From an uncultured Pseudomonadota bacterium (GTDB taxonomy: Bacteria; Myxococcota_A; Polyangia; Fen-1088): a stretch of DNA of 64,000 nt. Below are positions 24,326-28,762 of this stretch, piece by piece. The translations under genes and the position numbers were made by a program. Within the stretch, counting starts at the first letter, position 1. The number at the start of each line of letters is the position of its first letter. The notes under the pieces were generated by a model. The model did no database searches and had not been told where the DNA came from. It worked only from the letters and a program-made list of their open reading frames with translations. The DNA is taken from contig CAVZYM010000004.1 of the NCBI GenBank assembly GCA_963779495.1, forward strand, positions 735,205-799,204. Reading direction: 5' to 3'.

Positions 24326-24528
24326 CGGGGGATCCTCCGGCGAACAAGGACTGACCTAACAAAGGACCGGAGGTATCGGGATGGCTGCGAAGGCTGTAAC
24401 GAAGGGGCGGAGCGCGGGGCCGGCCGACCCGTGAGAACGGCGCCTGTCGACGCCGACTGGAAACTTTTCACGCGCCGTAGTTAGCATCGAAGCGGTGACG
24501 ACGGGCGGCGGAGCCAGGAAGGTCCACG

Positions 24529-27500
24529 ATGGCCGATGAGCCGTTGCGCTATTGTCGCGACGAATCCACCGCCGCTGAGGCTCGGCGCGCTGCGCTCGCC
24601 ACCATCATTGGAACGGCGAGCGCGGGAGCGCTCTCCGTCGCGCTCTTTCTGGTCGTGCTGCGGTTCCCGGCTTTCGGCGCGAAGTACGCTCAGATCGCCG
24701 AGTCGTTGGGTTTCCCGAACACTGCCAAGAAGCTGCCGTGGGGGTTCTGGGGGTTCTTGACCGTCTCGCTGGGAATTTCGCTGGTCTTCTACAAGTCTCG
24801 TGTCGTCAGGAGGTGGGACTTCCTCCTGTTCTCGCCCTTCGACAGTGAAACGCTCGAGCCCGTGACTCGCTACACGGGCTTGCTTGGCTGGCACATGCCG
24901 GAGGAGGGTCCGACGCGTGATGCCTGGAATGCGCTCCGCTCGTGGGCGTTGATGGGCATCGCCGAGCTCGACGTTCAAGCCTTTCGGCGCCGCGAGAGTG
25001 GCCGTCGCACCCAGGACCCGTTTTCGTGGACGATCCTCCTCGGCCCCAACGGCAGCGGAAAATCTCAGCTGACGAAAGAGCTCGGGCGTGACCTTGGCCA
25101 GCGGGCCATTCTCGGCGATGGCGTTCCCAGACCAGGCGCGCCGGGACGGCGGCGCCTCCGGTTGCGCCAGTGGTGGCATCGCGTGAGGGGCAAGACACTG
25201 GAGAACGTTCCATGGGACGCCGGGATGGTGGCGAAACGCGGGGACCGAAAGGACGATCACAGGCTGGAGCGGCTCAAGACCTGGCTGCCACGAGCCCCGA
25301 CCTTTCTCATTTTGGACGATCCGCCACTGACGGTCTGCTCGAAGGTCATCGAGACGCTCGCGGCGCGACAAGACAAATATCTGTTCCCTGTCCGGCTGGT
25401 GATCGTCGACCAATTCATTCCCGCCGATCTTCCCGTCATGAAGAATACCGACCGAGTGGGGTGGCACCACTCCGACGCAGCGTCCGTTGCGTTCTCCCCC
25501 ATCTTCTTGGCGGCGCCCGCCTTCGACGTCGAGCGCTTCCGCAAGGTTCTGGCGCAAGGCTACTGGGTCAAGGAGGCCAAGGCGCCGCCCATCCTCGAGA
25601 GGGACTTGCCCGCCCTCTACAGGTACGAGGACATGGAGCGCCTCGTGAGCGCCGTGGACGGAAGTCCAATGCTGTTGGCGCTCGCGACTCATTGGTTGCG
25701 TCGCCGGGGCCGTTCCGTCGAGATGCTCCTGCGCGGCACTCTCGACATCGTGGCCGAGGAGGAAAAGGTCTTCTTCGGACCGACAGGTGAGGACCTGCGC
25801 GCTCTCGTCTCCCATCGGTTGGTGACTGAGCGCATCGAAGAGCTGTACGAGGGCTTCAAAGCCGTCGATCTGCACCAGCCTCATGACAAGGCGGCTCTGC
25901 GCAAATCGATTGCGTGCGCGACGATCGCCGACGGCATCTCGAGCCGCACCGCGCGCGAACGATTCAAGTTGGGCGGGGACGACACGGACCTGCACCGCGT
26001 CTTCGCCGACGTTCCCGGAACCATCGAGACCGTGCCGCCCGTGCGTCCCTGGTTGATCGGAGAACACTTCGTCTCGAAGGTCGAGCACGACGTCTACCCG
26101 GGACAGACACAGGGTGTGGATGGCCTCATTCGAGAGGCATGGCAAATTCATCCCGACGGAACGCTCGAGGCCCTGTCCCGGCCCGGACCGCTGGCTTGCC
26201 GAATCGCGCGCGTCATCGGCGACGCTCCGCGACCGACTGACGGGGCCACCCAACTGACGCAGTTCACGGCGCTCGCCCAGCACGCTCTGTTTAGTTCGGG
26301 CGACTCACTGCCCCGTGCTCTCGCCATCGCGGCGGAGATGAGTTCGCTCGTCGTAGGCGAGGCGTCTGCGATTCTCGAGCGGCTCACGGAACTGAACCTT
26401 CGTGCGGACGGCCTGTCAGCCTGCGCCCTCTTCTGTTCGCTCGCGGCCCGGCGTTTGGAGACCGAGAAGGTTGCTGGCGAAGAGCTGTTTTCGAGGATCC
26501 AGACCCTGCTACGTCGGGCCCCTGACGGGATCCTCCACGAAGATGCCGCTCCGCAGATAAATGCGCTCGAGACCGCATTCCGTGCGATTGCTCGACGGCT
26601 CGCAGAACGGTTGGCGCCGGTGGAGACCATCGAGGAAGTCGAAGTTCGTCTTCTTCAATTCAACAAGTCTATTCTTCGCTACCTCCCCAAGAGCCTGATC
26701 CGCCACTGGGCCGAGGCGCTCGCCGAAAACGCCCGACAGCCGGTGTCGCAAGCGGAACGATTCGAGATGGAATCGATCTTGGCATTCTCCCTGGCGGCCG
26801 CCGAAACGGGCGACGCCGACACCTGCGAGACCAACGTAAAGAGGATCGAGCGCCTCTTAGCCTCTTGGACCTTCGAACCATCTATTGCCGCACGGATTCG
26901 TGCCACCGCTCAGAGACACGTCGTGACAGCTCACGCCGAAGGGCCGGACGGAGGCACGGCGGCCGGGTTGGCGATTTCGGTTCTCGACGAGATCGTTCGA
27001 CCCTGGCCGGAACATCCCGACGTCCAAAGAGAGCTAGCTAAAGCCTGGCGGAACACAGCGGTAAGCTATAGCAACATCCCAAACAATCCGGCCAAGACCG
27101 AGTTGGCGGCAATCATGGTCGACGCCATCGCTGGAAGATTTCCATGGGATCAGGAGATACAACAGACGCGGGCGCGGACCTGGTCAGCTGTCGCGTATGC
27201 GCGAAGCCAAGTCTCCTTGCCGAAAGCATCCTCGGTGGAGGCCGCTGCGCTAGTCGTCGACAGCATCGGCCCGATTCCACCCCAGGACGACTGGTCAGTC
27301 GCCGAGCAAACGGACGCTTGGGCATCTGTCGGTTACGCGGCCACCGAGGATGAGAGCCTCACCCCCAGCGAGGCGCGAGCCTCCGCGGAACACGCGGCCA
27401 GGAAGGTGGACGAGATCGCGAGAGACCGTCTGCGCGAATATTGGTTGCAATGCCATCGCGCCGATGCGTGGACGTTCGTCTCCGCGACGAGGAGCCGGCA

Positions 27501-28557
27501 CCGTGATCCTGACGGCGCCTTGACGACCTCGGCGGCCACCGAGGTCGTATCCTCCATCGCGCAGCTTTTCCCATCGTCGACGGGGATCCAGACAGCCCTG
27601 GTCGGAGCGTTGGGAGCAGTCGTCGAAGAAGGGTCAAGATTCGGGAATGGTCCGCGCGCCGAGGCCGCTGCGCGAGCCGCCGAGAACGTCGCGAGGCGGT
27701 TTCCCGACCATCTGCCAATGCAACACCAACGTGCCAATGCGTGGACATCCCTCGTCGAAGCCCGCGCTCACAATCCGCAGAAACGCCCGAACGCCGTGTC
27801 CGTGGCAACAGTTGTGGATCGGATCGCTGCGCCGTTTCCGACTGCTGCCAAGATTCAGCTAGAAAGAGCGAAAACCTGGCGACTGGTGGTCTATGCGAGG
27901 GCACACCTGGCAGACCAACGGTCACAAGTCGAGTCGACAGCGCGGCTAGTCGACGCCATCTGCGAGCCCTTCGCGGAGTCTGCCGAGTTCCAACTCGAGC
28001 GGGCTCAAGCATGGTGCACCGTTGCCTTCGCATCTTCCTTCGAGTCGAATCCAATGGCGCTCTTGGACACAGCCACAAAGACCGTCGACGCCATAGTTGA
28101 ACGCTTCCCCAATCACTCCAAGCTTCTCCGCGAGCGCGCGGAGACTTGGCGTTGGGCGGCCGTCGCTCTCAGTGAGGTAAAAGGCATGGAGAACGCGGTG
28201 GCGGTCGTCGATACCATCGCTGCGCAGCTCCCAGACGATCCTTTCATGCAGCTTGAAAGAGCTCTCGCGTGGCAACGAATGGCCTACGCCCGCTTGCACA
28301 AGACGGATCAACTAGCACTGACTGAGGCAGCTGTGGTCGTCGTGGACACGATCGGCCAGAACTTTCCCCAAGTTGAAGCTATTCAAGACGCCCGAGCGGA
28401 GGCCTGGAAAATGGCCGCAGAGGCGGGGAGAAGGTCGGGCAACCAGGCAGCGGAAATGCGCGCGATGCAGCGGCTGTTCGAGGCCAACGCGCGGTTCACG
28501 TCGGCCAACGTCGACACCTCATCGCCGCCGGCGAGCGCCGCTCGTTCCAAGAAATAG
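24529..28557 (+). CDS. Membrane-anchored NB-ARC/STAND-like P-loop NTPase with C-terminal helical-repeat array (1342 aa)
   Basis: Intact ORF.
- TM helices: two predicted, at about aa 20-45 (ATIIGTASAGALSVALFLVVL) and about 66-88 (WGFWGFLTVSLGISLVFY).
- NTPase motifs: Walker A GPNGSGKS (25042-25065), Walker B FLILDD (25303-25320), RLVIVDQ, and a GLPL-like GSPMLLALA (25660-25680).
- Repeats: about 11 degenerate ~44-aa repeats over about 26958-28500, with consensus A..VD.I...FP....Q.ERA.AW....YA.
- Composition: lower GC than the flanks. Confidence 0.85.
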   Translation: MADEPLRYCRDESTAAEARRAALATIIGTASAGALSVALFLVVLRFPAFGAKYAQIAESLGFPNTAKKLPWGFWGFLTVSLGISLVFYKSRVVRRWDFLLFSPFDSETLEPVTRYTGLLGWHMPEEGPTRDAWNALRSWALMGIAELDVQAFRRRESGRRTQDPFSWTILLGPNGSGKSQLTKELGRDLGQRAILGDGVPRPGAPGRRRLRLRQWWHRVRGKTLENVPWDAGMVAKRGDRKDDHRLERLKTWLPRAPTFLILDDPPLTVCSKVIETLAARQDKYLFPVRLVIVDQFIPADLPVMKNTDRVGWHHSDAASVAFSPIFLAAPAFDVERFRKVLAQGYWVKEAKAPPILERDLPALYRYEDMERLVSAVDGSPMLLALATHWLRRRGRSVEMLLRGTLDIVAEEEKVFFGPTGEDLRALVSHRLVTERIEELYEGFKAVDLHQPHDKAALRKSIACATIADGISSRTARERFKLGGDDTDLHRVFADVPGTIETVPPVRPWLIGEHFVSKVEHDVYPGQTQGVDGLIREAWQIHPDGTLEALSRPGPLACRIARVIGDAPRPTDGATQLTQFTALAQHALFSSGDSLPRALAIAAEMSSLVVGEASAILERLTELNLRADGLSACALFCSLAARRLETEKVAGEELFSRIQTLLRRAPDGILHEDAAPQINALETAFRAIARRLAERLAPVETIEEVEVRLLQFNKSILRYLPKSLIRHWAEALAENARQPVSQAERFEMESILAFSLAAAETGDADTCETNVKRIERLLASWTFEPSIAARIRATAQRHVVTAHAEGPDGGTAAGLAISVLDEIVRPWPEHPDVQRELAKAWRNTAVSYSNIPNNPAKTELAAIMVDAIAGRFPWDQEIQQTRARTWSAVAYARSQVSLPKASSVEAAALVVDSIGPIPPQDDWSVAEQTDAWASVGYAATEDESLTPSEARASAEHAARKVDEIARDRLREYWLQCHRADAWTFVSATRSRHRDPDGALTTSAATEVVSSIAQLFPSSTGIQTALVGALGAVVEEGSRFGNGPRAEAAARAAENVARRFPDHLPMQHQRANAWTSLVEARAHNPQKRPNAVSVATVVDRIAAPFPTAAKIQLERAKTWRLVVYARAHLADQRSQVESTARLVDAICEPFAESAEFQLERAQAWCTVAFASSFESNPMALLDTATKTVDAIVERFPNHSKLLRERAETWRWAAVALSEVKGMENAVAVVDTIAAQLPDDPFMQLERALAWQRMAYARLHKTDQLALTEAAVVVVDTIGQNFPQVEAIQDARAEAWKMAAEAGRRSGNQAAEMRAMQRLFEANARFTSANVDTSSPPASAARSKK

Positions 28558-28619: not shown

Positions 28620-28690
28620 GCTGGCTCAGGACATCTCGGCCGACTACTTCATTCGTACCGGGCGCCGCCCCTAACCTGCCGAAAACGTTG

Positions 28691-28762
28691 AGCGGGAGAA
28701 GGGATTCGAACCCTCGACGTCCACCTTGGCAAGGTGGCACTCTACCACTGAGTTACTCCCGC
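28691..28762 (-). tRNA. tRNA-Gly (anticodon GCC)
   Basis: The reverse complement folds as a cloverleaf: acceptor GCGGGAG/CTCCCGC, D arm ACTC-AGTGGTA-GAGT, anticodon arm CCACC-TTGCCAA-GGTGG, variable ACGTC, T arm GAGGG-TTCGAAT-CCCTT, discriminator U. CCA is not encoded. Confidence 0.95.

Follow-up and report, generated by a model that had tools for sequence, protein, structure and literature searches.

A candidate NLR-like receptor with a predicted membrane hairpin, a STAND-like NTPase module and TPR-like repeats in an uncultured Polyangia bacterium

What kind of protein is encoded by a single 4-kb gene of atypical composition that stands among housekeeping-type genes in the genome of a Polyangia bacterium? 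The question is raised by an open reading frame (ORF) at 24529-28557 (+) of a 64,000-nucleotide (nt) stretch of contig CAVZYM010000004.1 (assembly GCA_963779495.1); the whole stretch is called the window here, and positions are counted from its first letter. A preliminary description, made from the letters of this DNA, had proposed a horizontally acquired protein with a membrane-inserted N terminus, an NTPase switch and a repeat sensor, and had placed its entry into the genome at a tRNA-Gly gene. We now suggest, with a probability of roughly 0.5, that the gene encodes a stand-alone, horizontally acquired NLR-like receptor that is anchored in the inner membrane and would act in immunity with a membrane-effector output. 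This reading draws on the layout of the protein and on analogy with known systems, and it is from the architecture that we infer the immune, pore-forming role.

The frame runs from ATG to TAG (28555-28557) over 4029 nt and 1342 amino acids (aa) with zero internal stops, as had been described. The three-part layout of membrane hairpin, P-loop switch and helical repeat array is real and is kept across about 350 representative clusters of related proteins. The two transmembrane helices proposed for the N terminus correspond to hydrophobic stretches at aa 21-53 and 69-88; the call was made by Kyte-Doolittle hydropathy analysis, in which the second helix is weaker than the first, and marginal. A first AlphaFold model, built from four sequences over aa 1-700, shows a helix at 14-45 (per-residue confidence, pLDDT, 75-84) and another at 73-88, the second carrying an LPWG motif that is kept in the closest relatives. 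Arginine and lysine flank the N-terminal side of the helices and follow the second one, a pattern compatible with an N-in/C-in hairpin. Since these residues stand before helix 1 and after helix 2, the ends of the hairpin, and hence the NTPase, are predicted to be cytoplasmic, and by the positive-inside pattern the repeats would face the cytoplasm as well. Between the hairpin and the nucleotide-binding domain (NBD) lies a conserved segment (aa 95-164) of the pattern DF.LF..FD..TL.P...TG...W..P..G..R.AW..L..W, which has pLDDT 79-96 over most of its length in a second model and zero named-domain matches. The P-loop motifs GPNGSGKS, FLILDD, RLVIVDQ and GSPMLLALA were all found at the places first given. 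Within them and beyond, G172, G177 and K178 are invariant in 105 sequences, and D263, V288, R289, P380, P503 and P507 are nearly so.

The fold of the NTPase module was read from the second model, an AlphaFold2 prediction of aa 95-560 from 32 family sequences (pLDDT 87.6; predicted TM-score, pTM, 0.90). The first model, in which the NTPase core has a pLDDT of 60 and Foldseek matches are weak, was not relied on. The second model runs through a helical bundle and then helix-strand-helix-helix-strand, an order that, read off the secondary-structure string rather than by superposition, would be that of the NBD, first helical domain (HD1) and winged-helix domain (WHD) of STAND proteins. Foldseek against the PDB placed a ZAR1 resistosome subunit at the top (6j5t_C, E 1e-5, probability 1.00), and NRC3, NRC4, Apaf-1, Sr35, WRR4A, the NRC1 NB-ARC domain, CED-4, NOD2 and SAMD9 were also returned at E <= 1e-3; TM-scores were 0.43/0.51 for CED-4 and only 0.35-0.5 for the NLR matches, at 10-13% sequence identity. 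Among the features of STAND proteins, the Walker A and Walker B motifs and the C-terminal, superstructure-forming repeats are present. In our reading the module would consist of an AAA+-type P-loop domain, a helical domain with the GxP motif and then a winged-helix domain, which makes it STAND-like in fold.

Profile libraries gave far less. Scans of the protein with Pfam, NCBIfam and PADLOC produced a match at the Walker A loop only, and profile searches of the PDB returned a P-loop for the NTPase and designed TPR proteins for the repeats. Among 39 relatives, 17 weakly matched AAA_16 (best E 2e-6) and two matched Pfam NACHT (PF05729) at E 2e-3, below any curated cut-off, with no NACHT match in the Polyangia protein itself. 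Zero matches were found in the protein and the 39 relatives to Pfam NB-ARC (PF00931), to the bNACHT and Avs models of PADLOC (PADLOC-DB 2.0, 2023) or to the KAP_NTPase, Tmn and clamp-loader models, and an MHD motif was not recognised in the alignment. The earlier placement among NB-ARC/NACHT-type STAND ATPases thus stands as fold-level similarity, by AlphaFold2 and Foldseek, and falls as an NB-ARC or NACHT assignment at the sequence level. That the family is undescribed was borne out to the extent that the protein fits no model in Pfam, NCBIfam or PADLOC. Relative to the libraries, what is novel is the sequence type of the NTPase, the pre-NBD segment, the N-terminal membrane hairpin and the 44-aa repeat, whereas the design logic is known.

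The family is widespread and very divergent. Searching 5.8 billion proteins through a word index gave three relatives (31-36% identical), and a search of that kind with the 32-sequence profile returned a single protein. Among about 15 billion proteins the closest relative is only 36% identical; the gene is therefore not a conserved core gene of its lineage. An exhaustive search of 1.84 billion representatives with a hidden Markov model (HMM) of the N-terminal 700 residues of these four proteins gave 351 matches at E <= 1e-3, 222 at E <= 1e-10 and 90 at E <= 1e-30. These roughly 350 clusters are representatives at 50% identity and come from soil, sludge and freshwater-type metagenomes. Most of the 351 matches are 1000-1600 aa long. 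Family members have 100-240 residues ahead of the P-loop, and in 103 of 108 full-length proteins this stretch includes one or more strongly hydrophobic segments. Next come the motifs G.xG.GK[ST], DPWDAG, W.PR.PT..hLDDP, PVRLhhV[DN]Q and GNPLh.ELA; the helical and winged-helix region closes with PP.RP..IG.AF, and a variable helical stretch and then the repeats complete the protein. A scan of GTDB representatives, pattern-based and able to reach close relatives only, found two relatives, and of two metagenome scans the first gave zero family loci and the second six.

Divergence is distributed unevenly along the protein. The NBD is 45-57% identical among the closest relatives. Across the four closest proteins, the NBD with the helical and winged-helix domains is 38-57% identical and the linker with the repeats 21-34%, the linker alone (aa 561-813) standing at 21-26% among close relatives. 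A conserved switch joined to a divergent linker and divergent repeats is consistent with receptor-like evolution.

The repeat array was confirmed much as first described, at about 11 units of 44 aa. An HMM of the repeat, derived from this protein and then refined with family sequences, counts 11 units at aa 814-1305 (domain E-values 1e-17 to 2e-3) with a period of 44-46 aa and the consensus A..VD.IA..FP.D..IQ.ERA.AW..VAYA, and the units are also visible as degenerate direct repeats in the DNA (families D1, D3, D13 and D19). Designed consensus TPR proteins align with the family profile (E 2.7e-12) by way of a common ..A.AW..L..AY helix. The unit is some 10 residues longer than the canonical 34-residue TPR, and the repeats of the Polyangia protein have zero matches to the Pfam TPR models, which a few relatives match weakly. 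We regard the repeats as TPR-like, as far as their sequence tells. Those of the Polyangia protein are 31% mutually identical, and it and all its closest relatives have 10-11 units; this repeat set is old and stable. Across the family the repeat HMM finds 0 to 17 units, and in many other members the repeats within one protein are 65-85% identical, with some units at 100%. Near-identical units within proteins point to recent duplication or homogenisation of repeats in parts of the family, and indicate that repeat turnover is recent in many members. Seven of them (P0105, P0085, P0004, P0139, P0092, P0070 and P0045) have tandem 44-45-aa repeats that are 72-85% identical on average.

The composition of the gene indicates a foreign origin. 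Its GC content is 0.633 against a window mean of 0.712, and G+C at third codon positions (GC3) is 0.74 against 0.82-0.94 in the native-looking genes of the window. The codon adaptation index (CAI), calculated with 14 native genes as the reference, is 0.415, compared with 0.65-0.80 for those genes. AAA supplies 33% of the lysine codons (native 8%), CAA 47% of the glutamine codons (7%) and ATT 31% of the isoleucine codons (4%); TTA, which had been listed among the unusual codons, occurs once. The compositional anomaly is thereby upheld, with both GC3 and CAI below the native genes, and we take the gene to be compositionally foreign and, as its codon usage indicates, acquired by horizontal transfer. 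The foreign segment does not extend over the wider dip in GC: the neighbouring cytochrome c-like gene is low in total GC and native in GC3 (0.88-0.90), and the atypical segment is therefore one gene only.

A lower GC3 of the family gene was also seen in four further hosts, with gene calls in these loci made by a simple ORF and GC3 heuristic. It is 0.54 against about 0.85 for the neighbours in a Zoogloea metagenome-assembled genome (MAG; L004, 9914-12688), 0.67 against 0.8-0.9 in an alphaproteobacterial MAG (L005, 9785-13579), 0.70 against 0.85-0.93 in one metagenome contig (L010, 9644-12532) and 0.46 against 0.82 for a truncated copy in another (L012, 2298-3650). GC-rich hosts may have received the gene repeatedly, or the whole family may share a codon bias (e.g. 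through low-expression selection).

The mechanism we propose is modelled on Avs/bNACHT proteins and on plant coiled-coil (CC) NLR resistosomes. At rest, the repeat solenoid would keep the ADP-bound NTPase closed. A foreign protein, most likely a phage protein, would bind the repeat surface and so permit nucleotide exchange and oligomerisation of the NTPase domains. Oligomerisation would cluster the N-terminal hairpins, two helices per subunit, into a bundle that renders the membrane leaky and aborts the infection. The hairpin is the only candidate output.

Plant NLRs supply the closest structural parallel. In ZAR1-type resistosomes, oligomerisation gathers N-terminal helices into a membrane channel, and the same logic is proposed here. 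ZAR1, NRC3/NRC4, Sr35 and Apaf-1/CED-4 are the best structural matches of the modelled NTPase module, and the motif order (Walker A, Walker B, a polar residue after strand 4, GxP helix) is that of the NB-ARC clade. Unlike plant NLRs, the protein has no Pfam NB-ARC match and no recognised MHD motif, the TM-scores and identities given above are low, and its helices are predicted to be membrane-inserted always rather than released on activation. The sensor also differs from those of plant NLRs and Apaf-1/CED-4 in that it consists of helical repeats and not of leucine-rich repeats or WD40. A second parallel comes from fungal NLRs, in which conserved internal TPR, ANK or WD repeats are ascribed to rapid repeat reshuffling that generates new specificities; in many family members, likewise, repeats are 65-100% identical and variable in number. 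Diversity-enhancing evolution of fungal NLRs is the subject of PMC13449251. Fungal NLRs belong to another lineage and NTPase clade, the repeats of the Polyangia protein are degenerate, and it has no known allorecognition context.

Among bacterial systems the nearest in logic are the Avs/bNACHT proteins. Antiviral STAND proteins have an effector at the N terminus, the NTPase in the middle and a sensor, mostly TPR-like, at the C terminus, and oligomerise on ligand binding (PMC13581612, PMC13276650), as Avs proteins do upon binding phage proteins (PMC13581612; PMC13276650; bioRxiv 10.1101/2022.07.19.500537). Transmembrane modules have been recorded on STAND/Avs-type proteins (PMC13581612, Extended Data Fig. 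2 legend; bioRxiv 10.1101/2022.07.19.500537). Like Avs/bNACHT, the Polyangia protein unites an output module at the N terminus, a STAND-type NTPase in the centre and long TPR-like repeats at the C terminus in one large polypeptide (PMC13581612; bioRxiv 10.1101/2022.07.19.500537); its distribution is likewise patchy and mobile, and its conserved switch is likewise paired with a divergent sensor. It differs in that it matches no PADLOC, Pfam NACHT or NB-ARC model (the Avs6-21 families and the 589 clades of PMC13581612 lie outside this comparison), that its N terminus is a two-helix membrane hairpin and not a nuclease, SIR2, TIR or protease, that its repeat period is 44-46 aa and not 34, and that it lies outside a defence island, its defence role being inferred. 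Tmn/KAP proteins resemble it as membrane-associated P-loop NTPases in a single-gene module, and Tmn reportedly protects against phage by acting at the membrane level (PMC13001434). In the Polyangia protein the helices are N-terminal to the NTPase, not within or after it, and are combined with a long repeat array and with no Tmn/KAP profile match.

Integration at the tRNA gene fared less well than the rest of the preliminary description. The end of the gene does adjoin the 3' end of tRNA-Gly(GCC), at 132 nt from the stop codon rather than the 134 first given, and the divergent cytochrome c gene was confirmed on the other side. The 23-nt 3' part of the tRNA has one copy in the window, allowing up to three mismatches. 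Local alignments of the tRNA and the two intergenic regions gave no excess over shuffled controls, so that neither an attachment (att)-like repeat nor the suspected degenerate direct repeat of the tRNA 3' half near 24.3-24.5 kb was found above chance. Scans of genes near the locus and in other parts of the window turned up no integrase or recombinase domain, and scans of five other family loci no tRNA. Insertion of an island at tRNA-Gly is consequently not upheld; we treat the tRNA as a neighbour, with a putative role as attachment site. The neighbours are an ATP-dependent DNA ligase, Fpg and the cytochrome c gene on one side and tRNA-Gly, DUF2071 and a tRNA methyltransferase fragment on the other. 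Contigs that carry the cytochrome c gene at 75-83% identity (Polyangia-type) differ from the window in synteny. Between 24200 and 28900 no sigma-70 consensus promoter was found, the terminator scan gave nothing useful, and the 3' spacer has a fold z of -0.2.

In relatives, too, the gene keeps changing company. The neighbours differ in every locus scanned and the module is therefore self-contained; we conclude that the family gene is a stand-alone module that sometimes lies near mobile or conflict genes. The sets include Fic with a GyrI-like protein and cytochrome c; DsbD with redoxin, RNase H and a phosphotransferase; Tae4 with an IS3 fragment; a VipB-domain gene with NUDIX; RibD_C with an AraC regulator; and flagellar genes with a TraG-type protein and ankyrin. 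Insertion sequence (IS) elements and genes for TraG-type coupling protein, Fic and Tae4 thus lie near some family copies.

Several observations weigh against an immune receptor with a membrane output. Beyond the Walker A loop, the sequence has no link to a named STAND family in Pfam, NCBIfam or PDB profiles, and homology to E. coli MalT was rejected, as hhalign of the family profile gave a probability of 7% and aligned the Walker A loop alone. Foldseek interleaves ORC/Cdc6, FtsH, TRIP13, p97 and RFC with the NLRs in the same E-value range. The 64-kb window holds housekeeping-type genes only, with no integrase, phage, type VI or type IV secretion system (T6SS, T4SS), toxin or known defence gene. 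PADLOC, on which the preliminary description had counted as a check, gives nothing meaningful for the protein or its 39 relatives, and the neighbours of family genes are mostly housekeeping, with few defence-like ones (SoFic, PD-T4-2_B and some candidate PDC models). By tblastn no relative was found in 50,697 phage records (queried with two family NTPase modules) or 72,556 plasmid records (queried with the full-length protein and one family NTPase module), a BFVD search returned generic AAA+ proteins only, and a single relative lies on a predicted viral contig (IMG/VR, L009), where the GC around it is mixed. The transmembrane helices may do no more than anchor the protein, and the genomic context does not link the gene to phage defence. 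Finally, a 2026 survey classed 198 of 589 prokaryotic STAND clades as defence-associated (PMC13581612), and a non-immune signalling role therefore stays a serious rival.

In that rival, which we consider possible and less probable than immunity, the protein is a membrane-tethered STAND regulator or scaffold. Its repeats would recognise a partner from the cell itself, or a signal from the envelope or from metabolism; its NTPase switch would then build a platform for signalling or assembly at the inner membrane, with the helices serving as an anchor only. The 391 of the 589 clades that are not classed as defence-associated include regulators (PMC13581612), and the housekeeping neighbours, the empty PADLOC result and the old, stable repeats of the Polyangia protein are all in keeping with such a role. 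What it leaves unaccounted for is the lack of an output domain (helix-turn-helix, kinase or cyclase) and of a conserved partner gene at any locus, together with the patchy occurrence of the gene, its foreign composition in at least five hosts and its lack of a close orthologue, whereas the adjoining cytochrome c gene has hundreds. The very recent repeat expansion in many members would also be unusual for housekeeping regulators. Another rival keeps the switch and membrane logic and gives it a non-phage trigger: the protein would be the sensor of a different conflict, for instance interbacterial attack by T6SS effectors, kin discrimination or the exclusion of conjugative elements. T6SS-related genes are found close to two of its three nearest relatives (Tae4 by P0002 and VipB/TssC by P0003), other members have genes for a TraG/T4SS coupling protein and for Fic in their vicinity, and soil or sludge is home to the host lineage, Polyangia, as well as to several of the other hosts. 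Yet these associations are single ones on short contigs with unrelated genes between, the neighbours scanned contain no recurring partner, and the window has no T6SS, T4SS or toxin gene, all of which makes this explanation unlikely.

We consider it very improbable that the NLR-like reading is mistaken and the protein is instead a transmembrane P-loop NTPase of the KAP/Tmn type or a generic AAA+ protein (clamp-loader, ORC-like). A relative is annotated in one source as 'DNA polymerase III delta prime subunit', Foldseek E-values for ORC, RFC, FtsH and TRIP13 are close to those for the NLRs, and Tmn is a known transmembrane P-loop defence NTPase (PMC13001434). The profile searches gave no KAP_NTPase, Tmn or clamp-loader match, however, and the hydrophobic helices (aa 21-88) stand ahead of the P-loop domain instead of being inserted in it. 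NB-ARC proteins are the top-ranked structural matches, and the predicted GxP helix and winged-helix-like domain after the NBD, followed by about 750 aa of helical repeats, would be typical of STAND proteins. Least probable of all is a decaying or non-functional acquired ORF that is open by chance. Many other window genes look frameshifted and codon adaptation is low, whereas the 4029-nt frame is open in 63% GC DNA with every family motif intact, has a Shine-Dalgarno-like site at the right distance from its start codon and shares its full architecture with relatives at 31-36% identity. The preliminary description had contrasted the intact frame with a window in which about half of the genes are broken. 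Such breakage is plausible from switches of GC3 phase and truncated domains and could equally consist of indel errors in the assembly; since the frameshifts may have arisen in assembly, an unbroken ORF argues only weakly for selection.

Beyond the immune receptor as such, we tentatively consider a more specific form, with less confidence than the general one: an NLR-like STAND family that resides permanently in the inner membrane as a 'built-in resistosome', in which ligand-driven oligomerisation would build a channel or lesion from its own hairpins and specificity would come from an undescribed 44-aa TPR-like repeat that is actively duplicated and homogenised in many members. If true, prokaryotes would have a counterpart of their own to the calcium-channel resistosomes of plant CC-NLRs. 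The mechanism would place sensor, switch and membrane effector in one polypeptide without an enzyme domain, and would offer a tractable bacterial model for the step from NLR oligomerisation to membrane damage, as in plant resistosomes. The family usually lies outside defence islands, so context-based discovery would miss it, and its near-identical tandem units provide a test case for repeat-driven diversification of specificity in bacteria. If the role proves to be non-immune, the gene would still define a membrane-tethered STAND signalling family. Coordinates of the gene, its parts and its flanks are collected in Table 1.

Table 1. Position of the gene, its motifs and domains, and the flanking features in the window
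Feature	Position	Strand	Basis or remark
Di-haem cytochrome c-like gene (CVTCH, CNNCH), divergent; native core gene, left boundary of foreign segment	23807-24325	-	GC3 0.88-0.90
Shine-Dalgarno-like AGGAAGG	24516-24522	+	6 nt 5' of ATG, read from sequence
Whole single-gene module, intact ORF	24529-28557	+	identical public protein P0001, one NCBI/ENA contig (1.06 Mb)
Hydrophobic helix 1, aa 21-53, RR before it	24589-24687	+	Kyte-Doolittle 19-residue mean 2.3
Hydrophobic helix 2, aa 69-88, LPWGFWG motif, then KSRVVRR	24733-24792	+	Kyte-Doolittle mean 1.56
Conserved pre-NBD segment, aa 95-164	24811-25020	+	invariant columns in alignments of relatives
NBD, aa 165-365	25021-25623	+	motifs, beta-alpha-beta core of model, Foldseek
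Walker A GPNGSGKS, aa 172-179 (K178)	25042-25065	+	read from sequence
Walker B TFLILDD, aa 258-264	25300-25320	+	read from sequence
Strand PVRLVIVDQ, aa 287-295, conserved polar residue at sensor-1 position	25387-25413	+	read from sequence
Helical domain and winged-helix-like domain (about aa 456-505)	25624-26208	+	second model
GxP motif GSPMLLALA, aa 378-386	25660-25686	+	read from sequence
Conserved PPVRPW	26035-26052	+	within helical/winged-helix region
Variable helical linker or sensor-proximal domain, aa 561-813	26209-26967	+	all-helical, pLDDT 57-90 (first model)
11 repeats of about 44-46 aa, aa 814-1305	26968-28443	+	repeat HMM domains
C-terminal tail, aa 1306-1342, unconserved	28444-28554	+	alignment of relatives
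tRNA-Gly(GCC), convergent with the gene	28690-28762	-	ARAGORN, sole tRNA of the window

Some further observations concern the loci of relatives. The Tae4 gene, which encodes a T6SS amidase effector, lies about 2.4-3 kb upstream of P0002 (L001:2926-3865) and is adjoined by a small ORF that could be a candidate immunity gene, and the VipB/TssC-domain gene lies 156 nt downstream of P0003 on a JGI contig; a T6SS link suggested by these two genes was not reproduced in the window or in other loci. On two separate metagenome contigs (L012:2298-4648 and L011:1-2370) a truncated family copy of 450 aa, comprising the NTPase only, is immediately followed by an ISXO2/IS1595-type transposase. Many family genes lie on metagenome contigs only 4-8 kb long (L002, L003, L016, L017 and the JGI contigs of P0003 and P0005) with little else on them; assemblies may break near family genes owing to strain-variable regions or internal repeats. 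The polymerase subunit name mentioned above is the JGI/IMG label of P0153 (90% cluster of P0004) and was evidently carried over from generic AAA+ (clamp-loader) similarity.

Elsewhere in the window, the frame of highest GC3 switches every 300-500 nt at 28900-42000, 45000-57000 and 13922-18762, and several ORFs contain partial Pfam domains (Pkinase 82-211/263, Sugar_tr 3-159/452, HATPase_c 2-69/111). The switches reflect either frameshifted pseudogenes or an indel-rich assembly. To the right of the tRNA, the ORFs at 28778-30244 (-) and 29649-32699 (-) join stretches that do not belong together into a single frame (DUF2071 and, upstream of it, a stretch rich in Arg/Ala; fragments of a tRNA U5-methyltransferase). 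These long ORFs are spurious or frameshift-fused, as is typical of high-GC DNA, and are not to be taken for genes. To the left of the gene, the cytochrome c-like protein has two CxxCH motifs and no Pfam match. It has 400 homologues (E <= 1e-10), of which the best 120 listed share 70-84% identity with it; these come mostly from soil metagenomes, and one carries the name Polyangia bacterium. Curated models do not cover this di-haem cytochrome, which is conserved and specific to its lineage.

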